Virus record (IMG/VR): IMGVR_UViG_3300021138_000002
Location: 64,001 to 128,000 of that record
Direction: 5' to 3' (one strand)
Source of the DNA: a virus
DNA length: 64,000 bases
The notes beneath the pieces are model-generated. The model saw only the letters and a list, made by a program, of their open reading frames with translations. It ran no database searches and was not told the DNA's origin. The position numbers and the translations under genes are program-made. Shown one piece after another: positions 10,487 to 32,298 of this stretch. Each line of letters opens with the position of its first letter. Position 1 is the first letter of the stretch.

Positions 10487-11683
10487 ATGTCACAAGAATT
10501 ATTAGAAAGTCGTTGGGGAGAAACCAAAGAAGCATTGCTCGAGGGCTTAAATGGCTCAAAACGCAATTCAATGGCAGTTATCCTTGAAAATACCAAAAAG
10601 TACTTGAAAGAGAACGCAACTTCTGGTTCTACTGCAAGCGGCAACATCGCTACCTTGAACAGAGTGATTCTGCCAGTGATACGACGTGTTATGCCAACTG
10701 TTATCGCTAACGAGTTGGTAGGCGTACAGCCAATGACAGGTCCAGTGGGTCAAATCCACACATTGCGTGTAAGATACGCACAGAGCTTGACTGACAACAG
10801 CCAAGCAGCAACTAGTGTAACAGCCGGCCAAGAAGCATTAAGCCCGTTCACTATTGCAACTGCATACTCCACAGTTCCACAAGGTGCTACTACTGCTAGC
10901 GGTTACACTGGCAATAACACAGCTACCATGGAAGGTACTGGCGGTAAGCAGATTAGTGTTCAGATCTTGAAACAGGCTGTTGAAGCTAAGACTCGTAAGT
11001 TACAAGCACGTTGGACTTTTGAATCTGCACAAGACGCACAAGCCATGCATGGTATTGACGTTGAAGCAGAAATCATGGCTGCTCTTGCACAAGAGATCAC
11101 AGCTGAGATCGATCAAGAGATCCTCTTGAGCTTGCAGACTTTGGCTGCAACCGAGTACACATACAACCAAGCTACTGTATCTGGTACTGCTACATTCGTT
11201 GGTGACGAGCACGCTGCTTTGGCTGTTCTTATCAACAGAGTTGCAAACTTGATCGCTCAGCGTACACGTCGTGGTGCTGGTAACTGGTGTGTTGTAAGTC
11301 CAGCAAGTTTAACTGTTTTACAAAGTGCAACAACTAGTGCATTTGCTCGTACAACAGAAGGTACTTTTGAAGCTCCTACAAACACCAAGTTTGTTGGTAC
11401 TTTAAACGGTGCTATGCGTGTGTTTGTAAACAGCTATGCTCAAGACACACAGAGCGTATTGGTAGGTTACAAAGGTACATCAGAAGCTGATGCTGCCGCG
11501 TTCTACTGCCCATACATTCCGTTAATGAGCTCTGGCGTTGTATTAGATCCGTCAACCTTCGAACCAGTCGTATCATTTATGACACGTTATGGCTTCGTAG
11601 AATTAACGAACACTGCCTCGAGTTTCGGGAACGCCGCCGACTACGTGGGGGAGATTGCCGTCCAGAACCTTAGTTTTTCCTAA
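10487..11683 (+). CDS. gp23: major capsid protein (T4 gp23-like)
   Basis: RRVMPTVIANELVGVQPMTGPVG, AKTRKLQARWT.E.AQD, FYCPYIPL and TRYG motifs. Confidence 0.97.
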   Translation: MSQELLESRWGETKEALLEGLNGSKRNSMAVILENTKKYLKENATSGSTASGNIATLNRVILPVIRRVMPTVIANELVGVQPMTGPVGQIHTLRVRYAQSLTDNSQAATSVTAGQEALSPFTIATAYSTVPQGATTASGYTGNNTATMEGTGGKQISVQILKQAVEAKTRKLQARWTFESAQDAQAMHGIDVEAEIMAALAQEITAEIDQEILLSLQTLAATEYTYNQATVSGTATFVGDEHAALAVLINRVANLIAQRTRRGAGNWCVVSPASLTVLQSATTSAFARTTEGTFEAPTNTKFVGTLNGAMRVFVNSYAQDTQSVLVGYKGTSEADAAAFYCPYIPLMSSGVVLDPSTFEPVVSFMTRYGFVELTNTASSFGNAADYVGEIAVQNLSFS

Positions 11684-17781: not shown

Positions 17782-20700
17782 GTGGCCGTCACAAGAATAA
17801 AAAATAACCAGATCACTGATGCATCAGCTGGCAATACCCAACTTGGTATCAATGCAAATACCAAAGTACAAGATTATAGCGTAACTTCAGTCAAGTTAGC
17901 TAACAATATTACCTATGGTTCAGACCTTACCATTTCGGGTAACCTAAGCGTAACTGGTACAACCACAGCGGTTGATACCACATATACCAACATACAAGAT
18001 CCCCTGATCGTATTAGCAGACGGACAGACTAGTGGTAGCCCGGCCGTGGACATCGGCTATATCGGTCTACGTGGAAACCAAGCCAATATTGCTCTTATCT
18101 GGAATGAGGCCAACAGCACTTTTGCTGCTACCTATACCAACAGCGGTGTGAACGATAACACCGTTGTTGCGATCAACAGCTATGCCGACTTCAAGGCCAA
18201 CAATGTAAACACTGTGACTGATGTTTCAGCAGGCGGTAACGTATCGGGTGGCAATGTCTCTGCCACAACTGATGTATCAGCTGGTGGCAATGTAGCAGGT
18301 GGCAATGTGACTGCTACTACCAATGTGAGTGCTGGCGGAAACGTTTTGGCCAATACTGATGTTTCGGCTGGCGGTAACGTAGTTGGTGGCAATGTAAATG
18401 TAACTACCAACGTAAGTGCTGGTGGCAACATCTACGGTGCAAATTTTGCAACAACAGGATCGGGTGGCAATATCACTGGTGCCAATGTTATTTCTGCAAC
18501 TACAGTGACCACTACTGGTGATGTCAGTGCAGGTGGCAATGTTGTAACTGGTGCCAATGTCAGCGTAGGCGGAAACGTTTCAGTTGCTGGCAATATTACT
18601 GCGGTAGGCAACATTGGTGCTGGTCAGTACCTGTTTGGTGATGGTTATTATATCAGCAACATCAACTCAGGCAATATTGCAGCCAGTAAAATTGTAAACG
18701 GCGGTAGCTTTGCTAATATAGCCACAACTGACGGCAACTTGGTAGTTGCCATTGGTAACGCTTCGAGCACAGTGGCCACATTCTATGACACTGGTATCAA
18801 CACCAACGGCAATCTCAGTGCCAGTGGTAATATACTAGCCGGGGCTGACATAAGTGCTGGTGGTAACGTAACTGCAACTACCAATATCTCAGCCGGTAGC
18901 AATGTTTTGGCCAATACCGATGTTTCAGCAGGCGGTAATGTGTTAGGTGGCAACGTAACTGCCACTACCAATGTTTCAGCTGGTAGCAATGTTCTTGCTA
19001 ACACAGACGTTTCGGCTGGTGGTAACGTAATTGGTGGCAATGTAACTGCAACTACTAATGTTTCAGCTGGTAGCAACGTTTTAGCAAATACTGATGTAAG
19101 TGCTGGCGGTAATGTAATTGGTGGTAACGTAACTGCAACTACCAATGTTTCAGCTGGTAGCAATGTTCTTGCCAACACAGATGTAAGTGCTGGCGGTAAT
19201 GTAATTGGTGGTAACGTAATCGCAACTACCACCGTGAGTGCTGGCACCAATGTAATTTCTGGACAAGATATCAGTGCAGGCGGCAATGTATTGGCCTACA
19301 ACAGTGTTTCTGCTAACGGAAATATAGCAGGTGACAATGTAATTGCTGGCACTACCATTTCATCAGGCGGAAATGTATTGGTTTATGGTTTGGTGACAGC
19401 TGGTGGCAACATACAGTCCAATCAAAATGTACAGGCTTTCCAGGATGTCAGTGCCGGTGGTAACATAATTGCAAATTACAACGTAACTGCTACAGGCAAC
19501 GTAACTGGTGGTAACGTAAATGCGGTTGGTATAGGTGCAGTAGTAAGTGCAGACGGCAACGTGGTTGGTGGCAACATAGTCACTCAAGGCACTATCACAG
19601 CCACAGGTACATTGGAAGCTGGCAACATAGTCACCGGCGGATATGTAACTGCCACAGGTAACGTACAAGCCGGCAATATCAACACAGCAGGCGACGTAAG
19701 CGCCACAGCCAATGTCAACAGCGGCAACGTAAACAGTGGCACTATCAGTGCCACAGGTGCGATATATGGTGCCAACATCAACAGCAACTATCTCTACAGT
19801 GCCAACAGCAGTTTGGTTATCAGTGCAGTAGGTACCAATAGCGGTATCAGCATATTCACCAACGGCTCGGGCAACATTGGTGTGGGCAATGCCTATATCA
19901 ACAACTTGGCTGATCCACAGCAGAATCAAGATGCGGCTACCAAGTTCTATGTTGACAGCGTGGCACAAGGTTTAGCAGTAAAAGCTTCTGTGAGTGTGAG
20001 TGAAGTTTCCACATTGGCCAACGTGACCAACGTGACCAACGTGACTTACAACAACGGCACGTCCGGAGTTGGTGCCACATTGACCATAACCAGTACAGCT
20101 CAAATCAGTTTAGACGGAGTTAATCTCAGTACATTGCCGGCCAATGCCAGAGTATTGATACAGAACGAAACCGGATCCGGTGCTGGCGATACCAATGCTG
20201 CCTGGAACGGTATCTATTACATATCAACCAATACTCCAACCAACACTGTGCTCACACGTAGCTTGGATATGAATCAACCGAGCGAATTCTACGGTGCATT
20301 TACCTTTGTTGAAGACGGTACTGTGTACAAGGCCTCGGGTTGGGTATGTACCAATACTGCTGAGGCTAGCCCGATCACGATCGGTACCACAGCAGTTACT
20401 TGGAGCCAGTTCTCGGGTGCAGGTGCTTACACACAAGGCAACGGTATCGCGATTACAGGCACAATCATCAGCACCAGAATCAACACTGGCAATTTAGAGT
20501 ATGATGGTAGCGGAAACCTACAAGTATCCAGCTATGCCAATTTGACTTATCCAAATATTGGATCAGCAACTGGTACCACATTGAGCTTGACCGGTAATTT
20601 GGTTGCCAGTGCGATTGGCTCAACCGACAGCATGAGTGCTGCAGGCAATGTTTATGCAGGCAATATCAGTACAAGTGGCACTGTAGTTGCGGTAGCCAAC

Positions 20701-23061
20701 ATAACTGGTGGCAACTTGTTGACCGGCAACGTGGTCAGTGCAACTGGTAACGTAACAGGTGGCAATTTGATCACTGCAGGTTATGTTTCTGCTACTGGCA
20801 ATTTGTACGGTGGTAACCTCAGCTTGTCAGGCAACGTACTCAGCGATATCAACATGTTGGGCAACATCACTGCAGGTGGATATATCACCGCAGTTGGCAA
20901 CGTGTCAGCTGGCAATGTAAACACTGGCATAGTATCAGCTAGCGGTAACATATATTCAGCCAATATATTTGCCACAGGCGCTATTATTCCTACCACAGAC
21001 AACACATTTACACTGGGTAACTCAACCAACAGTTGGCAAAGCCTGTATGTTAGCGGAAGCACCATTTACTTGGGCAACATCCAACTCAAACAAACCGCGG
21101 CAAATACCCTTAGCGTGGTAGCCAGCGATGGTACTACACCAGCCAGCTTGTCTATCAACAGTATCAGTGCCAGTGGAAATATCACTGCTAATGGAAACAT
21201 GAGTGCCGGCGGCAATGTATGGTCTTCGGCAGACGTCAGCGCCACAGGCAATGTGTACGGCAACAATCTTTCAGCAGTCAGCAATGTAGCAGGTGGCAAT
21301 ATAGTTGCAACTACCGATGTAAGTGCTGGTGGTAATGTTTTAGCCAATACCGACCTAAGTGCTGGCGGCAATGTTGTGGGTGGCAATGTAAACGTAACTA
21401 CCAACGTAAGTGCTGGTGGTAACGTCTATGGTGCCAATTTTGCAACAACGGGCCCAAGTGGCAACATTACTGGTGCCAATGTTATTTCTGCAACCACATT
21501 CACTGCCAGCGGCAATGTCACTGCCAACAATGTAACAGTTGGAAACATAGTGAGTGCAGTTGGCAATATTGTTACTAGCAACTACTTTGTGGGCGATGGT
21601 TACTACATCAGCAACATCAACGCCGGCAACGTGGCCACAACCAAAATCTTTAACGGCAACAGCTATGCCAACGTAACTGCCAGCAACGGCAACGTCACAA
21701 TTGGTGTAAACAGCAATTTGGTAGCCACATTCTATGACACTGGTATCAGTTCAACTGGCAATGTAAACGTTGACGGATTAACTATTGCAGTAGGTCAGAG
21801 TTTGATTGGTACCACAGCCAATGCCAATATTACCATAACACCAAACGGATCGGGCGTACTTGCAGTACAAAGTTCCAGCAACGTTGGTATAGTTGTAAGT
21901 ACAACTAGTGCTAATTTAAAAAATCAAATTAGAGTGCAGACTGTTGGAACCACCCTGGGCGGAAGCGGCGGCGGAGCATTTGTTGGAACTTATGTACTAG
22001 GTAACGGCACACCAACACAAAGTCAAAATCGTTTGGTAACCATTGTTGGTGAAGGATCTGAAGACGGCACAACTGCCGGCCCAAGTGCTGCAACCAAGAT
22101 CACGTTGGATGCTGCAGCCGATTGGTCAACAGGAAACACACCGGCTCACATCAGTTTTTGGACCACACCAAGTGGAAGCAACGTCAGTGTTGAATCAGTA
22201 CGAGCCGAATCCAACGGCGATTTGAGTATTTTTAATGGTAACTTGAATGCAGCCAACGGTAACGTTTACACAACCAGTGTCAGCGCCAGCGGTTCGATTG
22301 TGGCAGACGCCAATATCACCGGTGGTAATATATACACTGGCGGCGAAATCAGTTCAACTGGTAACGTCACATCTGGCACATTCTTCTATGTTGATCCTGT
22401 AGACAGCACTGTGTTGATCGGCAACAGCTCGATCGTGGCCTGTTCTGTATTGAGTTTGAACACCACAACCAGCTTTGTAGTTCCAGTTGGTAACACAGCA
22501 CAACGTCCAAGTTCAACTTACACTGGTATGGTTCGTTTCAATACCAGCCAAAACAACTTGGAAGTGTACGACAACGCACAATGGAGCCCAGTTGGTTCAA
22601 CCACATACACTGTGATTGCTGACGAACAGTTCAACGGCGACGGTGCTACTGTGGCCTTTACATTGGGTAGCACACAAACTACCAACAGTTGTATTGTAAG
22701 CATCAACGGTGTGGTACAGATCCCAACATTGGCTTATGCTGTGTCAGGAACTTACCCAACTTGTGTGTTGACATTCACAGAAGCTCCAGAACTTGGTGAC
22801 GTAATTGATGTAAGAGAAATCACAACCACAGTGACCTTGACCGAATTGGCCAGCCAAAGCGGTAATGCAACTGTAACTGTAAGCAACACCAGCGCCGAAG
22901 TTGACATCAAGGGTAACTTGGTAACCACAGTTAATAGCTCAGCTCCAACCCTGTCGACCAACCAGACCTTGAGCTTCCAGCTAGTATCAAATACCAGCTT
23001 GAAGATCTTGGTACGCGGCAGCGACGGTGTAACAAGAAGCGCCACATTGACCCTGAGCTAA
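17782..23061 (+). CDS. very large repeat-rich tail/collar fibre protein
   Basis: 1759 aa; VSAGGNV repeats; INNLADP...DAATKFYVD; COG5301-like RVLIQNE...NGIY...FVEDG; C-terminal KILVRGSDGVTRS. Confidence 0.75.
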   Translation: MAVTRIKNNQITDASAGNTQLGINANTKVQDYSVTSVKLANNITYGSDLTISGNLSVTGTTTAVDTTYTNIQDPLIVLADGQTSGSPAVDIGYIGLRGNQANIALIWNEANSTFAATYTNSGVNDNTVVAINSYADFKANNVNTVTDVSAGGNVSGGNVSATTDVSAGGNVAGGNVTATTNVSAGGNVLANTDVSAGGNVVGGNVNVTTNVSAGGNIYGANFATTGSGGNITGANVISATTVTTTGDVSAGGNVVTGANVSVGGNVSVAGNITAVGNIGAGQYLFGDGYYISNINSGNIAASKIVNGGSFANIATTDGNLVVAIGNASSTVATFYDTGINTNGNLSASGNILAGADISAGGNVTATTNISAGSNVLANTDVSAGGNVLGGNVTATTNVSAGSNVLANTDVSAGGNVIGGNVTATTNVSAGSNVLANTDVSAGGNVIGGNVTATTNVSAGSNVLANTDVSAGGNVIGGNVIATTTVSAGTNVISGQDISAGGNVLAYNSVSANGNIAGDNVIAGTTISSGGNVLVYGLVTAGGNIQSNQNVQAFQDVSAGGNIIANYNVTATGNVTGGNVNAVGIGAVVSADGNVVGGNIVTQGTITATGTLEAGNIVTGGYVTATGNVQAGNINTAGDVSATANVNSGNVNSGTISATGAIYGANINSNYLYSANSSLVISAVGTNSGISIFTNGSGNIGVGNAYINNLADPQQNQDAATKFYVDSVAQGLAVKASVSVSEVSTLANVTNVTNVTYNNGTSGVGATLTITSTAQISLDGVNLSTLPANARVLIQNETGSGAGDTNAAWNGIYYISTNTPTNTVLTRSLDMNQPSEFYGAFTFVEDGTVYKASGWVCTNTAEASPITIGTTAVTWSQFSGAGAYTQGNGIAITGTIISTRINTGNLEYDGSGNLQVSSYANLTYPNIGSATGTTLSLTGNLVASAIGSTDSMSAAGNVYAGNISTSGTVVAVANITGGNLLTGNVVSATGNVTGGNLITAGYVSATGNLYGGNLSLSGNVLSDINMLGNITAGGYITAVGNVSAGNVNTGIVSASGNIYSANIFATGAIIPTTDNTFTLGNSTNSWQSLYVSGSTIYLGNIQLKQTAANTLSVVASDGTTPASLSINSISASGNITANGNMSAGGNVWSSADVSATGNVYGNNLSAVSNVAGGNIVATTDVSAGGNVLANTDLSAGGNVVGGNVNVTTNVSAGGNVYGANFATTGPSGNITGANVISATTFTASGNVTANNVTVGNIVSAVGNIVTSNYFVGDGYYISNINAGNVATTKIFNGNSYANVTASNGNVTIGVNSNLVATFYDTGISSTGNVNVDGLTIAVGQSLIGTTANANITITPNGSGVLAVQSSSNVGIVVSTTSANLKNQIRVQTVGTTLGGSGGGAFVGTYVLGNGTPTQSQNRLVTIVGEGSEDGTTAGPSAATKITLDAAADWSTGNTPAHISFWTTPSGSNVSVESVRAESNGDLSIFNGNLNAANGNVYTTSVSASGSIVADANITGGNIYTGGEISSTGNVTSGTFFYVDPVDSTVLIGNSSIVACSVLSLNTTTSFVVPVGNTAQRPSSTYTGMVRFNTSQNNLEVYDNAQWSPVGSTTYTVIADEQFNGDGATVAFTLGSTQTTNSCIVSINGVVQIPTLAYAVSGTYPTCVLTFTEAPELGDVIDVREITTTVTLTELASQSGNATVTVSNTSAEVDIKGNLVTTVNSSAPTLSTNQTLSFQLVSNTSLKILVRGSDGVTRSATLTLS
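18865..19212 (+). repeat. 87-nt (29-aa) tandem coding repeat, about 4 copies
   Basis: NVTATTNVSAGSNVLANTDVSAGGNVIGG units start at 18865, 18952, 19039 and 19126. Confidence 0.85.
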
Positions 23062-23077
23062 AAACTATAGGGTTTAG

Positions 23078-23110
23078 AAAAAATAGGACTCTCCGGAGTT
23101 CTATTTTTTT
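23078..23110 (+). terminator. terminator hairpin, possibly bidirectional
   Basis: AAAAAATAGGACTC-TCCG-GAGTTCTATTTTTT. Confidence 0.75.
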
Positions 23111-23140
23111 GGCTAAATATACAATAGGATAGGTAAAAAA

Positions 23141-23872
23141 ATGGCTCTAACTAAACCCCGTGCGTATCAGATATACGACATAGATTACAAACAAGCGACC
23201 CGAGTAGTAACAGTTACCAACGTTTCTTTAACTGGCGGAGCCCCAAACAATGTGGACGGAGTAACGCTCAGCCTCAACGATCGAGTGCTAGTCACCGGCC
23301 AGGCTGACCAGACACAAAACGGTATCTACATCATAACCACTGTGGGATCGGGTGCCAACGGAACTTGGGCTCGTAGCAACGATACCAACGAAACAGGAGA
23401 ACTATTAGCCGGCACCATTGTCATGGTCACCGAAGGTGTAATCTACGCAGATACTCAGTGGAAACTGATCACAGACAATCCGATCATGATCGGAACCACG
23501 CCCTTAGTATTCACACAAAATTATTTGGCCAACGTATTACACGCTGGCAACAGCAATGTCACAGTTTACAGCAACGCCAATGTGACCATAACAGCTGCCG
23601 GTGCAGCCAATGTGCTCACCGTAGCCTCGGATGGTGTGTACGTGATTGGCAATGTGTCGGCTTCTGGCAATGTCACAGCCGGTCGTGTGTCAGCTACCGG
23701 CAATGTGACCGGTAACAATGTGGTTGCTGTGGCAGGATTTTTGGGCAATAATATCAGTGTGTCTGGCAACGTGACCCTGGGCAACCGACTGGATTGGACA
23801 TCAAACGGTACCAGTGCGGTATACCAAGTGTACAATGCCAGCACCGGAAGCCTGGATACCATATTTGGGTAA
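23141..23872 (+). CDS. COG5301-like tail fibre segment
   Basis: DYKQATRV...DGVTL..NDRVLV..Q.....NGIY...W.RS.D...VTEG; ends YNASTGSLDTIFG. Confidence 0.7.
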   Translation: MALTKPRAYQIYDIDYKQATRVVTVTNVSLTGGAPNNVDGVTLSLNDRVLVTGQADQTQNGIYIITTVGSGANGTWARSNDTNETGELLAGTIVMVTEGVIYADTQWKLITDNPIMIGTTPLVFTQNYLANVLHAGNSNVTVYSNANVTITAAGAANVLTVASDGVYVIGNVSASGNVTAGRVSATGNVTGNNVVAVAGFLGNNISVSGNVTLGNRLDWTSNGTSAVYQVYNASTGSLDTIFG

Positions 23873-23875
23873 TGT

Positions 23876-24745
23876 ATGTCTACATTAGCGACCCGACTCA
23901 CCAGTGATGGCATACTGCTAACCAATGCCTACTTTGACGAAATCACCAAGACCTGGGTCAGTATAGCACCTGATGCTGTGTATGCCGGCCAGTTTGACGA
24001 AGTTTTTCTAGCCACCGGCAGTTTGTTGTTCTCGGGATCCACCGATTTTCTCTACGGAACCAACTCGGTATTTGACATCAGTGCACCTGGCACAGCCTGG
24101 ACATTTGAAACTTGGATTTATCCTGCAACAGCCGGTGCTGTGTTCAGCATCGGCGACGGTACCCAGTACGGGCAGAGTTTTGCATTAGATTGGGGCGTTA
24201 CTGCCACTGACAAATTTACGCTAAAGCAAGGTGATGGATCCAGTTATCCCATTTCGATTACCACTGCTGGCACCTATGCCAGCGGATCTTGGTATCACGT
24301 GGCTGTGAGTTACACTGCCAGCGGCCTGAGAGCCATCTATGTCAACGGTGTGGATGATGCCAGTTACATGGCATCGGTCACGTTGAGTTCGGCCACCCAG
24401 TGGGTGGTCAACGGCTACTACGACAACAACGGTCTGGGCAATGCTGGCGGATCCGGGCACCTGAGCAATCTGAGATTTGTGTTGGGCACAGCCCTGTACA
24501 CAGCCAATTTTACGCCGCCTTACGCACCCCTAGTGCCGGTCACCAACACACAACTGCTGTTGTGCATGCCCGACAATGGTGGTGTCTTGATTGATACCAG
24601 TGCCAACGCTTTCAAAATTCAGAGCCAAGGAACACCGGTAGCAACTGTTTTAAAACCATTCGTGGTAAATACTGTACAACGAGAATTAAACACAGGAACC
24701 TTACAGGTTTCTGGATATTTTGATGAAGAAACTGGCATCATTTAA
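23876..24745 (+). CDS. LamG/concanavalin A-like lectin domain inserted in a small FDE-repeat protein
   Basis: WTFETWIYP, WYHVAVS, IYVNG and SNLRFV.GTALYTANFTPP; termini match ORF 27059..27301. Confidence 0.75.
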   Translation: MSTLATRLTSDGILLTNAYFDEITKTWVSIAPDAVYAGQFDEVFLATGSLLFSGSTDFLYGTNSVFDISAPGTAWTFETWIYPATAGAVFSIGDGTQYGQSFALDWGVTATDKFTLKQGDGSSYPISITTAGTYASGSWYHVAVSYTASGLRAIYVNGVDDASYMASVTLSSATQWVVNGYYDNNGLGNAGGSGHLSNLRFVLGTALYTANFTPPYAPLVPVTNTQLLLCMPDNGGVLIDTSANAFKIQSQGTPVATVLKPFVVNTVQRELNTGTLQVSGYFDEETGII

Positions 24746-24763
24746 CAATTAGGACAATAAAAA

Positions 24764-27046
24764 ATGGCTAAACTGCTATCAGGAACCACGGTATACGGAA
24801 ATGCCGTAATCCAAACATATATAACCGTTACCGGTAACGTGATCGGTGGCAACGTACTAGTAACCGGATCCGGACAGATCAGCACAGCTGGAAATGTCTA
24901 TGCCAACAACACAATCATAGCTGGATCAGAAACTGTGACTGGAAATATCACTGGTGGTAACATATTGACAGGTGGACAAATAAGTGCCACTGGCAATATC
25001 ACCATACCGCAAGGCAACTTCTTTATCGGTAATGGTAGCCAACTTACCGGTGTTGTTGCTACTTCGGCCAATGCCCAAACATTGACTGGCACATACCTTG
25101 CCAACAATGTTGTAACTTCCAATTTGACCAGTTTTGGTCTTGTAACTTCTATCAGCTCAACCGGCAACGTCACTACCACAGGTAATGTAATTGGTGGCAA
25201 CGTATTAACAGGTGGTTTGATTTCGGCGGCTGGTACGATCACCAGTGCAGCCAACATCACTGGCGGTAATGTATTAACTGCTGGCTTGATCAGCTCGACC
25301 GGCACAATCACTTCGGCAGCAAACGTGATCGGCGGCAATTTGGTCACTGCTGGATCAGTCACAGCCACAGCCAACATCACCGGCGGTAATGTATTAACAG
25401 CCGGTTTGGTAAGTGCTACAGGCAATGTCACAGGCGGCAACATAACCACCGCTGGTTTAATCACTGCAACCGGTGCAATCACCAGTTCTGCCAACATCAC
25501 AGGTGGTAATGTACTAACTGGTGGTTTGATCAGTGCCACAGGTAATGTGATCAGCGGCAACATAAACACCGGCAGTATCAGCCAAACCGGAAACTTATAT
25601 GTGGGCGGATCGGCCAACATTATCGGTAACTTGAACGTACAGGGCAATGTAACATTCGTCAACAGCAACGTAATCACTGTAAACGATTTATACATCGAAC
25701 TGGCCAACAACATCACTACCTATGCCAACGCTAACAGTGCTGGTTTGGTAGTTGGACCTGCCGGCAACAGCTTGTTCAATTGGCAGTATCTCAATTCAGC
25801 CAATGCCTGGTCAACCAACATCGGTATCAGTGCCCAGGGCAACATAAACGGTGGTAATGTAATCACAGGTGGTTTGGTAAACGCCACAGGCAATTTAACA
25901 GGTGGAAATGTAAACACAGCCGGTCTAATCAGTGCCGCAGGCAATATCTACGGTGGCAATTTGAGCATCACCGGAAGCATTACATTTGCTACAGTGACTG
26001 GAACTACAATCAGTGTCACTGGTAATGTGATTGGTGGTAATCTATTGACAGGTGGTGGCGTAAGTGCTGCCGGACAGATCAGTGCCACAGCCAACATCAC
26101 TGGTGGCAATTTGCTCACAGCTGGTCTAATCAGCTCAACTGGCTCTATCACCAGTGCTGCGAACGTGACCGGTGGTAATGTATTGACTGCTGGATTGGTA
26201 AGTGCCACGGGTAACATAACTGGCGGTAACATATTAAGTGCTGGCTTGGCCAGTTTGACCGGCAACATCACAGGCGGTAACATATTAACTGCTGGTTTGA
26301 TCAGCTCAACTGGCACAATCACCAGTGCTGCTAATATCACAGGTGGTAACGTATTAACTGCTGGTTTGATCAGCTCAACTGGTAATTTGACCAGCGGCAA
26401 CATTACAACCAGCGGCTCAGTGACAGCCACAGCCAATATTACCGGCGGCAACATATTAACTGCCGGCTTGATCAGCTCAACTGGTACTATCACTAGTTCT
26501 GCCAACATTGCAGGTGGTAATGTACTCACAGCTGGATTGATATCAGCAACCGGTAACGTAACAGGTAATTACATATTGGGTAACGGTAGTCAATTGACCG
26601 GTATTGATGTTGGACCACAACCCAACATTGTGAACGGAACTACCAACGTAAGTATTGCCACAGCCAATGCCAATGTGACAGTGAGTGTCGGCGGTGTTGG
26701 CAACGTAGCAGTATTTTCGACAGCCGGACTCAGTGTATCAGGCACAGTACAAGCCAACGGAACTGTCACAGGCGGTAATTTGGCCACAGCCGGCACCGCC
26801 AGTGCAACCGGCAACATCACCGGCGGTAACATACTGACAGCTGGATTGGTCAGCGCCACAGGCACCATTACTAGTGCTGCCAATATCACTGGTGGTAACT
26901 TGTTAACAGGTGGACAAATAAGTGCTACTGGTAATATTGCCACAAGCGCCTATTTAAACTTGGCCAACAGTGCTAATGCTGCCGGCCCAGGTGGACACAT
27001 AACTTATAACTCAAGTCTGATCAGCATAGACTTTACCTTTGGATAA
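24764..27046 (+). CDS. repeat-rich fibre segment
   Basis: Many NITGGNxLTAGLISxTG repeats; starts MAKLLSGTTVYG and ends YNSSLISIDFTFG. Confidence 0.7.
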   Translation: MAKLLSGTTVYGNAVIQTYITVTGNVIGGNVLVTGSGQISTAGNVYANNTIIAGSETVTGNITGGNILTGGQISATGNITIPQGNFFIGNGSQLTGVVATSANAQTLTGTYLANNVVTSNLTSFGLVTSISSTGNVTTTGNVIGGNVLTGGLISAAGTITSAANITGGNVLTAGLISSTGTITSAANVIGGNLVTAGSVTATANITGGNVLTAGLVSATGNVTGGNITTAGLITATGAITSSANITGGNVLTGGLISATGNVISGNINTGSISQTGNLYVGGSANIIGNLNVQGNVTFVNSNVITVNDLYIELANNITTYANANSAGLVVGPAGNSLFNWQYLNSANAWSTNIGISAQGNINGGNVITGGLVNATGNLTGGNVNTAGLISAAGNIYGGNLSITGSITFATVTGTTISVTGNVIGGNLLTGGGVSAAGQISATANITGGNLLTAGLISSTGSITSAANVTGGNVLTAGLVSATGNITGGNILSAGLASLTGNITGGNILTAGLISSTGTITSAANITGGNVLTAGLISSTGNLTSGNITTSGSVTATANITGGNILTAGLISSTGTITSSANIAGGNVLTAGLISATGNVTGNYILGNGSQLTGIDVGPQPNIVNGTTNVSIATANANVTVSVGGVGNVAVFSTAGLSVSGTVQANGTVTGGNLATAGTASATGNITGGNILTAGLVSATGTITSAANITGGNLLTGGQISATGNIATSAYLNLANSANAAGPGGHITYNSSLISIDFTFG

Positions 27047-27058
27047 TAGGGGAACACC

Positions 27059-27301
27059 ATGACATTTTTAGCCGCTAGACTGTTGAGCACCGGCAACCTG
27101 ATGATAGCCAACACTATCCAGTTTGACGAAGTCACGTACAGCAATGTACACATTGCTCAGAATGGATGCTATGCGGGATTGCTGGATGAAGTCACCCAAC
27201 CAGCCAATGTGCCCATGCGTATACTGAACAACCAAACCATACAAACTGGTAATGTAGCAGGAGCCAACGGAATATTTGACGAGTATACCGGCATAAGTTA
27301 A
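27059..27301 (+). CDS. small FDE-repeat protein, putative fibre adaptor
   Basis: Three FDE/LDE motifs; paralogous to the N- and C-terminal parts of 23876..24745. Confidence 0.6.
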   Translation: MTFLAARLLSTGNLMIANTIQFDEVTYSNVHIAQNGCYAGLLDEVTQPANVPMRILNNQTIQTGNVAGANGIFDEYTGIS

Positions 27302-27309
27302 AGGATACT

Positions 27310-27687
27310 ATGGCCAAATTACAAAGCGGAACCACGGTATACGGAAATGCCAATGTCACTACATACCTAACAGTTGGAAGCTATGTATCGGCTGCGGGCA
27401 ACGTGTATGCCGGCAACATTGTCAGCACCGGTTCAGAATCAGTCGCAGGAAACATTATCGGTGGTAACATACTCACTGCCGGACAGATCAGTGCCACCGG
27501 TAACATCACAGCTGATCCTAGCAGTTTTTTCATTGGTAATGGTAGTTTACTGACTGGTGTACAAACCAGTAACGGTGGTAATCTATTGGTATTACAAAGA
27601 ACAGGCATCCTAAAGGTGCCAATTAGCTATGGTTATCTGCTGGTGGTGGGTCGATCTGGAAATGTACAATGTCCAATTGTTGCATAA
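27310..27687 (+). CDS. short fibre segment
   Basis: MAKLQSGTTVYG start paralogous to 24764; FFIGNGS.LTGV; C-terminal L.V..R.G repeats. Confidence 0.65.
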   Translation: MAKLQSGTTVYGNANVTTYLTVGSYVSAAGNVYAGNIVSTGSESVAGNIIGGNILTAGQISATGNITADPSSFFIGNGSLLTGVQTSNGGNLLVLQRTGILKVPISYGYLLVVGRSGNVQCPIVA

Positions 27688-27708
27688 ATATGATAATAGG
27701 ATAATAAC

Positions 27709-30700
27709 ATGACAAATCGTTTTCCACTAATATCTAATGCAACAGCAAATCAGATACAAGAAATCGCCGTTGGCGATTTTCTAGATTTAAGCCAAAGTGG
27801 TATAGCCAACAGCGGTAATATTACAGTAGCTTCCGGTAGCTTTTTTATCGGAGACGGATCAAAACTAACCGGAGTAACTGCCGAAGGAGCAAATGCTGCT
27901 GAGCTGATAGGAAATACTCTCAGTTCTAATGTGCTTTTTTCAAGTTTAACCTCGGTGGGCACATTGACCACTGTTAGTGTATCGGGCAATATAGGTGGCG
28001 GAAACGTTTTAACCGGTGGCCTGATCAGTGCCAGTGGCAATATTACTGGAAATTACATATTAGGTAATGGTGCTTGTTTGACTGGTGTGATCACTAGTGT
28101 GGCCAATATCAATAACGGTACTTCAAATGTCGCAATCACCACTTCGGGTGGAAATGTCAATGTGGCAATTGCCGGCAATGCTATTGCTGCATTTACAGCC
28201 AATGGCTTGATGCCAGCTGCTAATGTCACATACAGTCTTGGATCAACTACCCAAAGATGGAAAGATCTTTGGGTCGCTAACAGTACAATTTACATGGGCA
28301 ATGTCAGTCTTGCCACAACTGGAGACACATTAACGGTCAACGGTGCTAATGTTTTAACTGGTACCAATGGTGGATTTAGCACTGCTGGCAATATCACCGG
28401 CGGTAATATTTTAAACAACGGATTGATCAGTTCAACCGGCAACAGCACAGCAGCCAATTATCAGACTGCAGGACTGGTATCAGCCACAGGTAACATTACC
28501 GGTGGCAATGTGTTAACCGGTGCTGTATCAGCTTCGGGCAACATAACTGGCGCCAACATCTTGACTGTTGGGCTAGTAAGTGCTGGCGCCAACATTACCA
28601 GTGCAACCAACATCAACGGTGGCAATTTGATTGCAACCGGTATAAACGGTTTTGTGAGTGCTAACGGTAACATTGTGACAGCATTTGGTAGTTTTATTGG
28701 AACAGCTATGTCTGTGAGTGGCAACATTGCAGGCGGCAATGTCAATACCGGCAGCATCAGTCAAACCGGCAATTTATATGTGGGCGGTAGTGCCAACATT
28801 ATCGGTAACTTGAATGTGTCGGGCAACGTGACATTCGTCAACAGCAACGTGATCACAGTCAATGACTTGTACATTGAGTTGGCCAACAATATTAACACTT
28901 ATGCCAATGCTAATTCGGCTGGATTGGCTGTTGGACCTGCCGGAAACGCATTATTCAACTGGCAATATCTTAACTCGGCTAACGCTTGGTCAACCAACAT
29001 CGGTATCAGTGCCGCAGGCAATGTCACAGTTGGCAATATTATCAACAAAGGATCTGAGACTGTTGTAGGCAATGTGATAGCAGCCGGATTCCAATATGCC
29101 AATGGTACTCCGGTACAAGGATCAGGCGCACAAGGCACAACCGGAACACAAGGCACTACTGGAGCTCAGGGCACAACCGGAGCACAAGGAACAACAGGTG
29201 CTCAAGGCACAACTGGAACACAAGGCACAACCGGAGCTCAAGGAACGCAAGGCACTACAGGTGCACAGGGAACCACAGGTGCACAGGGCACAACTGGAGC
29301 CCAGGGCACAACTGGAGCCCAGGGCACAACTGGAGCCCAGGGAACAACTGGTGCACAAGGTACAACCGGAGCCCAAGGAACCACAGGTGCACAGGGCACA
29401 ACCGGAGCACAAGGAACCACAGGAACACAAGGCACTACCGGAGCTCAAGGCACAACCGGAGCTCAAGGAACCACAGGTGCTCAAGGCACAACCGGATCAT
29501 TTAATGGCAATTTGACAGCCAATGTAAACGGCAATGGTTTCAGTATCAGCAATGTAGCTTATATCAGTACAAACAATAATATTACAGCTACCGGCAACGT
29601 AATTGGTGGCAATTTGCTTACCACTCTTGGCATCATCAGCACTGGTGGTAACATTTTTGGCTATCAAGAGTCATTGAGTGGTTCAAGTCAAGCAGCCAGC
29701 TACAGTGCCAGTGGTAACATAACCGGCGGTAACATAAACGCGGCTGTACTAATTTCGTCTGCCGGTAATGTATACGGAAACAATTTTGTAACCGCAGGTT
29801 CGGGCGGAGCATTATCGGGCACAGGTAATATAATTGGCGGTAACTTATTGACCAGTGGTGGCATAAGTGCTACCGGACAGATCAGTGCCACAGCCAACGT
29901 TACTGGTGGTAATGTCTTAACCGGCGGATTAGTTTCAGCCACAGCCAACGTTACTGGTGGCAATGTCTTAACCGGCGGATTAGTTTCAGCCACAGCCAAC
30001 GTTACTGGTGGCAATGTCATAACCGGCGGATTAGTCAGTGCCAACGGTACCATTACTGGCGGTAACATAAACACCGGTGGCGCAATATCAGCCAATGGCA
30101 ACGTCACTATAGGTACAGTTGGCTCAGGATCAGGCACCTATATTTCCGCACAAGGAAATATATCAGCTGCCAATATCATAACAACCGGTGCCAATGTAAG
30201 CAATATCATAATGCCTGGGTCGGGATATATCAGCGCCTATGGCAATATATATGGCGGTAATTTGATAGCAACCGCCGCAAGTGGATTTGTCAGTGCCAAT
30301 GGTAATATCGTGACAGCATTTGGTAGTTTTATTGGAACAGCAATGTCTGTGAGTGGCAATGTAAACAGTGGCAACATTAGAACTCTTGGTGTAGTCACAG
30401 CGTCTGGTAACGTAGTAGCGGCCGGATTCCAATATGCCAACGGTACCGCAGTACAAGGATCTGGAGCTCAAGGCACTACCGGTACACAGGGTACTACCGG
30501 AGCTCAAGGCACCACAGGTGCTCAAGGCACCACCGGTACACAGGGTACTACCGGAGCTCAAGGCACCACCGGTACACAGGGCACCACCGGTACACAGGGC
30601 ACAACTGGGGCTCAAGGCATTCAAGGTGTAGTTGGAACACAAGGTACAGTTGGCACTACGGGTGCTCAAGGAACTGTAGGTGCTCAAGGCATTCAAGGTG

Positions 30701-32298
30701 TAGTTGGAACACAAGGTGTAGTTGGAACACAAGGTACAGTTGGCACCACAGGTGCACAAGGCACAACAGGTACAACTGGATCAACCGGAGCACAGGGAAC
30801 CACAGGTGCACAAGGCACAACAGGTACAACTGGATCAACCGGTGCACAAGGAACCACAGGTGCACAAGGCACAACAGGTACAACTGGAGCACAAGGAACC
30901 ACAGGTGCACAAGGCATCACTGGATCAACCGGTCTAGGATATTCTGGATTGACATCCTCAAGTAGCCAAACTATTGCATCAAGCGGCACATTCACGCTTA
31001 CCACAAACTTGGCATCAACAGCGACAGCGTTTGCCATTGGACAACGTGTACGAGTATTCAACACACCAACTCCGGCCAACTTTATTGAGGGTACTATTGC
31101 CACGTTCTCTAGTACTTCGATGACTGTAACCATAACTAACAGCGGCGGTTCGGGAACATTCAGTGCTTGGACTATTGTTGACGCAGGTGTACAAGGTGCA
31201 CAAGGTACAACAGGTACAACCGGTAGCCAAGGTACCACAGGTAACACTGGTAGCCAAGGTACAGCTGGTACCAACGGAAACAACGGAAGCCAAGGTACAA
31301 CAGGTACTACAGGTAGCCAAGGTACCGCTGGTAACAACGGAAATAACGGAAGCCAAGGTACTGCTGGTAACAACGGAAACAACGGAAGCCAAGGTACAAC
31401 AGGTACAACCGGTAGCCAGGGTGCCACTGGACCACAGGGCAATCAGGGTAACACCGGTACACAAGGTACTACAGGTACAACCGGTAGCCAAGGCACAACA
31501 GGACCACAAGGCAATCAGGGTAATACTGGTAGCCAAGGTACTACAGGTGCAACAGGTAGCCAAGGTGCGACTGGACCACAGGGCAATCAGGGTAATACAG
31601 GTAGCCAAGGCGCAACAGGACCACAGGGCAATCAGGGTAATACAGGTAGCCAAGGTACTACAGGTGCAACAGGTAACCAAGGTAATCCGGGTAATACCGG
31701 TAGCCAAGGTACTGCTGGATCAACTGGTAGCCAAGGTGCCACAGGTCCAAGCACAGCAATCAATGCCACGGCAGTTAGTACCGGTACATACTATCCGGTA
31801 TTTGTTGCCTCAGCTGGATCAAATCAGACTCCAAGCATAAGAACCACTGCTACTGCATTCAGCTTCAATGCTGGAACCAACGTGCTTACTGTTACTGCAA
31901 CCACAGCACAATACGCCGACTTGGCAGAATGCTATGCAGCCGATGCCGAATATGCTCCTGGAACAGTAGTAGTGTTTGGTGGAACAAACGAAGTCACAAT
32001 CAGCGATATCGCAAGTAATCCTGCGGTAGCTGGTGTGGTCAGTACCGAACCAGCTCACTTGATGAATGCATTCCAACCGGGCAAAAACATAGTACCAGTT
32101 GCGTTGGTTGGACGTGTGCCTTGTCAAGTTACGGGTACGATCACCAAGGGCGATCGTTTGGTGACCAGCTCCATTCCGGGTGTGGCAGTTCGACTAGATC
32201 CAGATCTATATCAACCAGGTTGCTTGATTGGTAAAGCCCTGCAAGACTACGACAGTGACGCCATTGGCACCATCGAAGTAGCGGTAGGTCGAGCCTAA
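27709..32298 (+). CDS. collagen-like fibre protein with C-terminal chaperone/auto-cleavage-like domain
   Basis: MTNRFPL...QIQEI start; three G-X-Y tracts; C-terminal YADLAECY...PGTVV...GVVST.PA...[11 protein letters not shown]...IGKAL. Confidence 0.8.
29116..29497 (+). repeat. collagen-like (GAQGTT)n 18-nt coding repeat, tract 1
   Basis: Degenerate GGnGCnCArGGnACnACn repeats. Confidence 0.9.
30457..30940 (+). repeat. collagen-like G-X-Y repeat, tract 2
   Basis: [12 protein letters not shown] and GTTGST repeats. Confidence 0.9.
31186..31750 (+). repeat. collagen-like G-X-Y repeat, tract 3
   Basis: [15 protein letters not shown] and GNNGNN repeats. Confidence 0.9.

Follow-up and report, generated by a model that had tools for sequence, protein, structure and literature searches.

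How the parts of long, multi-part phage fibres are joined is scarcely understood so far outside T4 and its close relatives, and the fibre locus described here raises this question twice in one genome. The window, a stretch of 64,000 nucleotides (positions 64,001 to 128,000 of the IMG/VR record IMGVR_UViG_3300021138_000002), belongs to a T4-like jumbo phage and carries, as read from the letters at 23141-27687, the same three-gene junction two times: a fibre gene whose product ends in YNxxxxS[LI]DxxFG is followed by a gene for a small protein in which FDE-x-T occurs three times and by a further fibre gene whose product starts with MAKLxSGTTVYGN (Table 1). This duplication had been reported in a first-pass annotation, and its coordinates and motifs proved correct when checked on the sequence. 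The same annotation proposed a fibre of separately encoded segments and connectors, a principle that is not new but already known from T4 genes 34-35-36-37. Known is joining of the kneecap type; new is the three-FDE connector family. It supplies a compact, sequence-defined joint of a C-terminal motif, a putative 72-aa plug and an N-terminal motif, and there is evidence that large uncultured phages use this joint widely.

Table 1. Genes, domains and docking ends of the fibre locus (nucleotide positions in the window).
Feature	Position	Strand	Length	Remarks
Repeat-rich fibre protein	17782..23061	+	1759 aa	upstream of junctions; C-end ...LKILVRGSDGVTRSATLTLS
Segment 1	23141..23872	+	243 aa	
Segment 1, FG-type C-end	23831-23869			YNASTGSLDTIFG; 'D-T' type
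Adaptor 1	23876..24745	+	289 aa	split scaffold with Laminin_G_3 insert
Adaptor 1, units 1-2	23876-24010			residues 1-45
Adaptor 1, Laminin_G_3 (PF13385)	24083-24415			residues 70-180; 46.6 bits, cut-off 27.6
Adaptor 1, unit 3	24668-24742			residues 265-289
Segment 2 (middle rod)	24764..27046	+	760 aa	both docking ends
Segment 2, N-end	24764-24805			MAKLLSGTTVYGNA
Segment 2, FG-type C-end	27005-27043			YNSSLISIDFTFG; 'D-F' type
Adaptor 2	27059..27301	+	80 aa	bare scaffold, three hairpin units
Segment 3	27310..27687	+	125 aa	T4 gp36 position
Segment 3, N-end	27310-27351			MAKLQSGTTVYGNA
Collagen-repeat protein	27709..32298	+	1529 aa	starts MTNRFPL; directly after segment 3

The genes of the locus are tightly packed, with intergenic gaps of 3-18 nt. 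Segment 1 begins with a domain that is common among phage fibre proteins (PHROG fibre and virion families; tblastn to fibre proteins). The N-ends of segments 2 and 3 share 63% identity over 97 aa, and orthologues of segment 2, ranging from 574 to 1345 aa, have retained both docking ends. The C-end of segment 3 carries two LLV..R.G units, which confirms the earlier description of a last segment with a repeat C-end in front of the collagen protein; by these units, segment 3 probably docks the next protein directly. The collagen-repeat protein, matched by Collagen PF01391 (E 5e-67) and by tail-fibre PHROGs, is a candidate for the distal rod in T4 gp37 position. Its C-terminal domain, without a match in Pfam or PDB, ends in ...IEVAVGRA, and the same C-end is found on the last segment in the loci L007, L008, L010, L014, L015, and L029. 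The 1759-aa protein features a FapA beta-solenoid match, and its C-end recurs in L006, L007, L010, L013, L015, and L016, each time ahead of a gene that starts MALTKPRAYQ. That this protein and the collagen protein are parts of one single fibre is unsupported.

The two adaptors are paralogues (BLASTP, residues 1-43 vs. 1-45, 47% identity, E 1e-8), with residues 265-288 of adaptor 1 matching residues 50-79 of adaptor 2 (E 0.003) and about 220 aa inserted in the former relative to the latter. The insert contains the Laminin_G_3 domain and is, judged by this match, a lectin-like domain predicted to bind sugars; the first adaptor thus carries a lectin-type insert and the second is bare, as had been noted. 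All three units of adaptor 2 close with FDE-x-T, one of them in the form LDE, and both proteins match the family consensus drawn from 134 domains, namely R-L-x-x-T-G-x-L...FDEVT, ...YA..FDEVT, and ...R...G..QV.G.FDEVTGI. The scaffold comprises about 72 aa, is all-beta and consists of three hairpin units. For adaptor 2, AF2 returned a confident all-beta monomer (pLDDT 91.4, pTM 0.77); for the whole 289-aa adaptor 1, where the alignment was shallow, the pLDDT was 40.8. The adaptor core is a genuine domain that stands on its own, and its family counts 241 representatives at E<=1e-3, clustered at 50% identity. As the first-pass annotation had supposed, the family is undescribed: it has no match in Pfam, the annotated PHROGs or the PDB, where a sequence profile search with the adaptor produced chance matches only. 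Likewise, apart from one uncharacterised family member, no structural relative of the model turned up in the PDB (Foldseek; VIA-align, 48,161 chains) or BFVD (Foldseek). Protein atlas scores, all <0.9, were uninformative.

Units 1 and 3 of the scaffold are homologous beyond the shared motif (score 13.98, reached by 0 of 5000 shuffles; null maximum 5.58); the middle unit has only the motif in common with the others. The scaffold may accordingly be a pseudo-threefold plug, a fold which is argued from the sequence repeat only, as the model lacks a structural match in the PDB or BFVD apart from that family member. Derivation of the units from the FG-end tail was considered and set aside, the resemblance being limited to h-D-x-V-x-G. 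Throughout the family, bare adaptors of 71-80 aa are common beside split ones, in agreement with the claim of a scaffold bearing optional lectin-type domains. The cargo comprises LamG, Gly-rich, Ig-like, and beta-helix types (matched families: Laminin_G_3, Gly_rich_2, He_PIG) and is placed behind the first unit, the second unit or both, or else at one of the two termini, a pattern to be expected for three equivalent outward-facing sites. Cargo can be very large, up to 1654 aa, and includes beta-helix proteins typical of tailspikes. Some adaptors form the C-end of long beta-helix proteins; if the latter are trimeric, three plugs per joint would result.

Whether the three parts belong together was read from their genomic context in two unbiased DNA-motif scans of IMG/VR. 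The scan for the adaptor C-end motif returned real adaptors in 12 of 13 matches, nine of them new loci and three on contigs already in the comparison, and all nine new loci showed an FG-type end upstream and/or a MAKL-/MALL-type start downstream where the flanks lay within the stretch covered. The MAKL-start scan gave 92 informative cases, 87 of which have an adaptor within the three upstream genes (first gene 77, second 9, third 1), and 60 of the 63 genes upstream of an adaptor encode an FG-type C-end. The grammar recurs in >100 other viral contigs, so the pattern is not due to chance. Its order is invariant across distant phages, and the number of units varies, with one or two junctions per locus and never three. 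Independent occurrence of the motifs, named at the outset as counting against the linkage, was not encountered in these scans, and a search for fusions of FG-end, adaptor, and MAKL start in one protein found none. The docking motifs always lie at free termini, never fused or internal. Middle rods have them at both ends, whereas the N-end varies among first pieces and the C-end among last pieces. Exceptions are a gene of about 1000 aa ending in ...SWTEAQA, without a match in Pfam or PDB, which lies between adaptor and MAKL gene in nine loci, and the MAKL genes of L126 and L142, which have no adaptor nearby. The motifs are kept down to roughly 30-40% adaptor identity, with rod bodies and cargo being replaced meanwhile. 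As the loci come from related phages, the conserved order could partly reflect common descent. The strongly conserved FG-ends fall into two types, D-T-V-F and D-F-x-F, and the adaptor clades track them: adaptor 1 belongs to the clade following 'D-T' ends and adaptor 2 to that following 'D-F' ends. The two joints of this phage are therefore of different type, which would prevent mis-joining.

The closest known system is the knee of the T4 long tail fibre, (gp34)3 - gp35 - (gp36)3 - (gp37)3, in which separately encoded trimers are joined in gene order and a gp35 monomer bearing a CBM-like domain connects (gp34)3 and (gp36)3 (PMC3004832; bioRxiv 10.64898/2026.03.06.709160). In both systems, a connector gene lies between a proximal-rod gene and a short gp36-like gene, with a long distal rod next; gene order equals assembly order in T4 and would do so here. 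The tower-like domain of gp35 is formed by residues 1-21 and 324-372, and the stretch separating them holds ILEI/PANDER-like and CBM-like domains (bioRxiv 10.64898/2026.03.06.709160); compared with this published description, adaptor 1 shares the architecture of an N- and C-terminal scaffold around lectin- or CBM-like inserts, and other members of the three-FDE family have the gp35-like insert position after unit 1. Furthermore, MAKLxSGTxIYG can be aligned in register with MADLKxGSTxGG, the N-end of gp36 (profile P 2.7e-4; cross-controls P of at least 0.09), and the 125-aa piece also seems to join the collagen rod directly, as gp36 joins gp37. Sequence homology of adaptor and gp35 was not detected by hhalign (probability 0.2% for the adaptor profile against T4 gp35) or hmmsearch (best match 4.2 bits). 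Against an 11-member alignment of gp35 tower-like parts, the adaptor reached P 0.043, the alignment being confined to the terminal F-R/D-E motif; a 98-aa subfamily gave P>0.2 against gp35, and the resemblance of the gp34 C-end to the FG-end is weak (P 0.036). Unlike gp35, the three-FDE scaffold can be bare, shows three clear FDE-V-T units and bears far more varied cargo at up to three sites. The joint can also occur twice per fibre locus, unlike in T4, and the adaptors come from environmental and jumbo phages as well as from one cyanophage, but not from Straboviridae.

On these grounds, it is probable that the locus encodes a jointed fibre of separately encoded trimeric rods with one copy of a gp35-like adaptor per joint. 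The adaptor core, a single chain whose three beta-hairpin units each end in FDE-V-T, would form a pseudo-threefold plug. On one face it would bind the proximal rod by that rod's three free C-terminal tails (...YNxxTxSLDTVFG), and on the other it would receive the next rod's three free N-terminal strands (MAKLxSGTxIYGN). Being a monomer, the plug would break the threefold symmetry, so that the fibre could bend at the joint and one to three side domains could extend from it; in the window, the first joint would bear the LamG lectin and the second no side domain. The side domains may serve to bind glycans of the host or to keep the fibre in a folded position on the virion, in the manner of the gp35 CBM-like domain in T4. 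The resulting chain would run from the 243-aa piece over the LamG adaptor, the 760-aa rod, and the bare adaptor to the 125-aa gp36-like piece, with the collagen rod joined directly. More tentatively, and with considerable doubt, the scaffold might be understood as a single-chain mimic of a trimer end, that is, a universal plug which concatenates rods, offers up to three side domains per joint and corresponds to a minimal or ancestral gp35 tower-like domain, with cognate types of FG-end and adaptor (D-T and D-F) acting as orthogonal connectors that set the assembly order.

A single polypeptide on a threefold fibre end is also seen in PAAR proteins and T4 gp5.4, where one chain with internal threefold repeats caps the end and may bear extension domains. 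The likeness is by analogy only, and the adaptor's own pseudo-threefold fold is putative; moreover, PAAR proteins are an unrelated sequence family and cap a tip but link no two rods. The adaptors might instead be tip proteins, namely adhesins or chaperones that bind the FG-type C-end of the upstream fibre and present a lectin to the host, with the MAKL proteins forming separate fibres attached to the baseplate by their conserved N-end. T2 gp38, lambda Tfa, and Mu U' are likewise small proteins encoded just 3' of a fibre gene that bind the fibre C-end, and some of this group remain on the virion and bind receptors. The position of the adaptor gene directly 3' of a fibre gene, the typical receptor-binding modules among the cargo, and the strong FG-end conservation suit this explanation, as does the tracking of FG-end type by the adaptor clades, which is a coupling to the upstream gene only. 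It is nevertheless unlikely, for it leaves unexplained why a MAKL start follows in nearly all informative cases, why middle rods carry both motifs, why bare forms without a binding domain are common, and why the MAKL N-end resembles the gp35-binding N-end of gp36 (PMC3004832). In contrast to the gp38 and Tfa group, the adaptor nearly always precedes a second rod with a conserved N-end, and neither adaptor matches chaperone or adhesin families (tail fibre assembly chaperones, gp38-type) in Pfam or PHROG.

A branching hub, with the MAKL rod and large cargo as side branches off the end of the FG-ended rod, would give, in place of a serial fibre, a branched array of receptor-binding proteins like those of G7C, CBA120 or Rak2-like phages. 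In G7C (gp63.1/gp66) and CBA120 (TSP2/TSP4), several receptor-binding proteins are docked modularly via conserved terminal modules. The very large, partly tailspike-like cargo and the extra genes between adaptor and MAKL gene in some loci fit such an array, as does the finding that, judged by the capsid protein, the closest phages in culture are jumbo phages. The strictly linear grammar of one FG-end, one adaptor, and one MAKL start per junction makes it quite improbable, however, as do the middle rods with both ends. In addition, those systems use N-terminal gp10-like anchors within the spikes, whereas the adaptor is a mini-protein of its own, with three units, that is set between one free C-end and one free N-end, and the T4 gp10-like domains of known branching systems were not detected in these proteins (Pfam, PHROG). 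Hardly credible, finally, is conserved synteny with signal-like termini in one lineage (e.g., by translational coupling or a shared chaperone) without mutual contact. All loci do stem from related environmental phages with tightly packed genes, but the motifs exist at protein level on free termini, persist despite swapped rod bodies and cargo, and appear in both paralogous junctions of one genome.

If correct, the jointed fibre would explain the cassette-like swapping of rods and lectin domains in these phages and extend the principle of the T4 kneecap more generally. As a modular connector provided by nature, the joint would further be of use for work on receptor-binding fibres of phages in phage-host pairs kept in the laboratory. 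The junction proteins of the window had no match among cultured phages in DNA and protein searches, and neither did P0049. Starting from P0025, a more consensus-like family member, and only from this one, a single cultured phage with the junction was found, Synechococcus phage S-SRM01, which offers a test case for the joint. Its junction (gp331-gp333) is situated inside the block of baseplate and long-tail-fibre genes, and gp332 matches the adaptor profile with E 3e-13.

Two junctions of one kind had been described for the window in the first-pass annotation, each consisting of a fibre rod with a C-terminal FG-end, a small adaptor with three FDE-x-T units and a next rod with an N-terminal MAKL start, and all elements of this description are present in the sequence (see table). 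The two adaptors, of 289 aa and 80 aa, are paralogues, each encoded between two fibre genes. Residues 1-45 of the 80-aa adaptor match the first 43 residues of its 289-aa counterpart (E 1e-8) and residues 50-79 match its last 24 residues (E 0.003), with about 220 aa, including a Laminin_G_3 domain over the Pfam cut-off, inserted between the scaffold halves of the larger protein.

Fibre genes of the window and their terminal sequences
Feature	Position	Strand	Termini
Fibre-gene run, containing both junctions	17782-32298	+	
243-aa fibre protein	23141-23872	+	C-end YNASTGSLDTIFG
760-aa fibre protein	24764-27046	+	N-end MAKLLSGTTVYGNA, C-end YNSSLISIDFTFG
125-aa fibre protein	27310-27687	+	N-end MAKLQSGTTVYGNA

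The window (bases 64001-128000 of the 145-kb IMG/VR record) additionally features a T4-type structural module with gp20 portal, gp23 capsid protein, gp15, tail sheath and large terminase. The capsid protein (10487-11683) is about 65% identical to those of the jumbo phages Vibrio phage 2.275.O, Sinorhizobium phage Phosso and Pseudomonas phage PA5oct, and the completeness of the record is 42% (CheckV); the virus is therefore probably a jumbo myovirus of ~300 kb or larger.

The adaptor family comprised 19 close clusters of 66-84 aa in a word-based search, and 241 proteins at E<=1e-3 emerged when 1.84 billion representatives were searched in full with a HMMER profile; all ten sampled clusters were metagenomic and unnamed or "hypothetical". 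No Pfam entry corresponds to either adaptor, and in PHROGs the 80-aa adaptor is unmatched and the 289-aa adaptor matched only in its insert region (residues 42-269). Among solved structures none is related by sequence or by fold, and relatives of the adaptor model in BFVD are limited to one uncharacterised family member. The family consensus (73 columns, from 134 extracted domains) consists of three units, each closed by F-D-E-V-T: ..A-R-L-T-N-T-G-N-L...FDEVT, ...I-S-I-T...V-Y-A-x-x-FDEVT and ..V-A-x-R-I-T-N-T-G-T-L-Q-V-S-G-I-FDEVTGI. Units 1 and 3 are alike far outside the motif (score 13.98; other registers <=5.58; a score as high in 0 of 5000 column shuffles), and unit 2 has only the motif and its spacing in common with them. 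An AlphaFold2 model of the 80-aa adaptor (pLDDT 91.4, pTM 0.77) predicts a small all-beta domain with short hairpins per unit. At three IMG/VR loci (L045, L093, L125) a subfamily of 98-101 aa was found, with the N-end MGVVGRLDQYASML, four acidic motifs (EFDE, EFSE, YDEF, EIDE) and upstream rods ending SLDFVAG; hhalign establishes its homology with the main family (96%, E 1e-9).

Bare forms of the scaffold span 71-101 aa; in other forms, cargo follows unit 1, unit 2 or both, or sits at the C-end or N-end. Several proteins have their units ~200-700 aa apart, e.g., at 1-35, 225-249 and 463-486 in locus L036. The cargo types identified are Laminin_G_3, Gly_rich_2 and He_PIG Ig-like domains. A pseudo-threefold single-chain domain would be expected to have one insertion point after each unit, all three equivalent. 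The scaffold was also found closing beta-helix proteins of 800-2000 aa that begin MATYYWVGGTGTW; the representatives P0027, P0030, P0057 and P0119 continue this start as .....TNW..SSGG.GGA.VPT..D.V. One such protein (L030:9597-12188) stands in the place of an adaptor, preceded by an FG-ended rod, with a 54-aa ORF in between, and followed by a MAKL-start rod.

Across related contigs retrieved using the 80-aa adaptor (L006-L017), the order of FG-ended piece, LamG adaptor, MAKL...FG rod, bare adaptor and MAKL piece is kept, with varying rod lengths (574-1345 aa and 125-1598 aa). Scanning IMG/VR for DNA encoding the adaptor C-end G-x-F-D-E-V-T-G-I gave 13 stretches, 12 of them with adaptors; three were contigs already retrieved and nine were new loci, which feature an upstream FG-type end and/or a downstream MAKL- or MALL-type start wherever the flanks lie inside the retrieved stretch. 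Among them are adaptors 517-1040 aa long, a beta-helix protein that carries the scaffold at its C-terminus, and L023, from a second clade with two junctions. When IMG/VR was scanned for DNA encoding the MAKL start (M-A-K-L-x-x-G-T-x-[IV]-Y-G), at least 119 stretches matched. Among the matches listed, 116 MAKL starts lie in ORFs, and in this phylogenetically non-independent sample, ascertained on the MAKL motif itself, the adaptor HMM matched the first, second and third upstream gene in 77, 9 and 1 cases, respectively; 24 starts were cut by the locus edge and the five remaining were scored as "no adaptor". L136, a "no adaptor" case, carries a divergent adaptor overlooked by the HMM, three such cases are edge artefacts, and L126 and L142 look like real exceptions.

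The gene before the adaptor ends [LIF][DE]x[VIKTYF]Fx in 53 of 63 cases, SLDFV[AS]G in six and SFEFQFK in one; the other three, 692 nt from the adaptor, are probably not true neighbours. The FG-end consensus is V-Y-Q-Y-Y-N-x-x-T-N-S-L-D-T-V-F-G with invariant N, D and F. Both FG and MAKL motifs are free termini in every case, and a search for internal copies or fusions found none. One adaptor per locus occurs in 79 loci, two in 21 and three in none, the loci being short. In a tree of 69 scaffolds, adaptors following D-F-x-F ends group separately from those following D-T-V-F ends, with the LamG adaptor of the window in the D-T group and its bare adaptor in the D-F group. This match fits cognate, non-interchangeable joints and is supportive rather than decisive, because relatives share labels.

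Some fibre loci show additional genes. A conserved protein of ~1000 aa, starting MARKAILDTYY.FTPST and ending ...RLSWTEAQA, accompanies fibre loci (L024:4635-7859, L013:11316-14195, L045, L049, L075, L093, L125, L127, L133, L136) and in nine loci separates the MAKL-start gene from the adaptor, with intergenic gaps of 0-4 nt; Pfam contains no match for it, and the window lacks it. In one clade (L019:6790-7673, L028:4542-5428), two small conserved genes (75 aa and ~220 aa) likewise separate the MAKL-start gene from a large adaptor.

A cultured example, Synechococcus phage S-SRM01 (Kyanoviridae), was identified by tblastn with an adaptor-family member. Its gp331 ends ...NSLDFIFI, gp332 combines an N-end scaffold (E 3e-13) with a C-terminal domain, and gp333 (1540 aa) starts MALLKTNTGIG; the annotations of the flanking genes are baseplate wedge and long tail fibre distal subunit. 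The S-SRM01 paper contains no virion proteomics. This sole cultured adaptor-bearing phage is a cyanophage; the capsid protein of the window is nearest to jumbo phages of proteobacteria, not cyanophages.

A mere synteny of the three genes is unlikely, because the protein-level termini persist while rod bodies and cargo are exchanged. Gene position and lectin cargo would also agree with a tip adhesin or chaperone, a reading which is nevertheless improbable as it does not account for a MAKL gene that follows almost without exception, for rods that have both ends or for the bare adaptor forms. Somewhat less probable still is a variant of the connector model with the adaptor as a branching hub.

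The connector reading has a counterpart in the T4 long tail fibre, which consists of (gp34)3, monomeric gp35 at the knee, (gp36)3 and (gp37)3 in identical gene order, with gp35 binding gp36 and gp36 binding the N-end of gp37 (PMC3004832). The tower-like domain of gp35 (residues 1-21 and 324-372) carries inserted ILEI/PANDER-like and CBM-like domains, the latter holding the fibritin whisker (bioRxiv 10.64898/2026.03.06.709160). Like gp35, the adaptors are small split scaffolds with inserted lectin-like domains, placed between a rod C-end and the N-end of a short rod, and in many family members the insert likewise follows unit 1, near residues 21-25. Motifs reminiscent of the three FDE units occur in 11 diverse gp35 sequences: F-G-Q-G or F-D-E-D at the N-end, E-F-G-V-N-G in the middle and F-R/K-E at the C-end. 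The MAKL N-end gave an in-register alignment with that of gp36 (MADLKxGSTxGG; P 2.7e-4; cross-controls P>=0.09), and the FG-end a weak one with the gp34 C-end (P 0.036). The design is thus shared and the N-end gp36-like, but profile comparisons of adaptor and gp35 were not significant; the adaptor system is therefore treated as working like the T4 knee, with membership of the gp35 family not demonstrated. Gene-ordered fibre segments joined by a monomeric connector with a lectin-like domain are already known from T4. What is new is the adaptor family itself, which occurs widely in uncultured phages and had not been described, together with its minimal form of three units, its provision of three sites for cargo and its double use within one locus.

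In the proposed model, every rod would be a trimer bearing free C-terminal FG tails, and a single adaptor chain would fold its three hairpin units into a plug seated on the threefold end; the rod that follows would attach to this plug by its three N-terminal MAKL strands. Such a monomeric plug would break the symmetry, allowing a bend and pointing the cargo sideways. The fibre of the window would accordingly have two knees and, beyond them, a gp36-like piece of 125 aa joined straight to the collagen rod, its LLV..R.G end pairing with the MTNRFPL start as in gp36-gp37.

A second, adaptor-less junction type occurs in the window between the end of the 1759-aa gene and the start of the 243-aa gene (22990-23220) and between the 125-aa piece and the collagen protein (27600-27790). 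C-ends of the form ...LVRGxDGVTRxAxxTxS or LLVVGRSGNV are followed here by genes starting MALTKPRAYQIYDIDYKQ or MTNRFPL; the 1759-aa protein, a possible part of the same fibre, has an end similar to ...LVRGxDGV..., followed by a conserved MALTKPRAYQ start. At other loci, a ...YVYGxLL end precedes an MxLTLDGTxG start without an adaptor. These may be direct rod-to-rod joints resembling T4 gp36-gp37. At many related loci, the last fibre segment closes with the ~160 aa that also form the C-terminus of the collagen protein (31801-32298; ...ADLAECY...IEVAVGRA). This region has no match in Pfam or PDB, is distinct from Peptidase_S74 and could serve as a tip domain or as an intramolecular chaperone.
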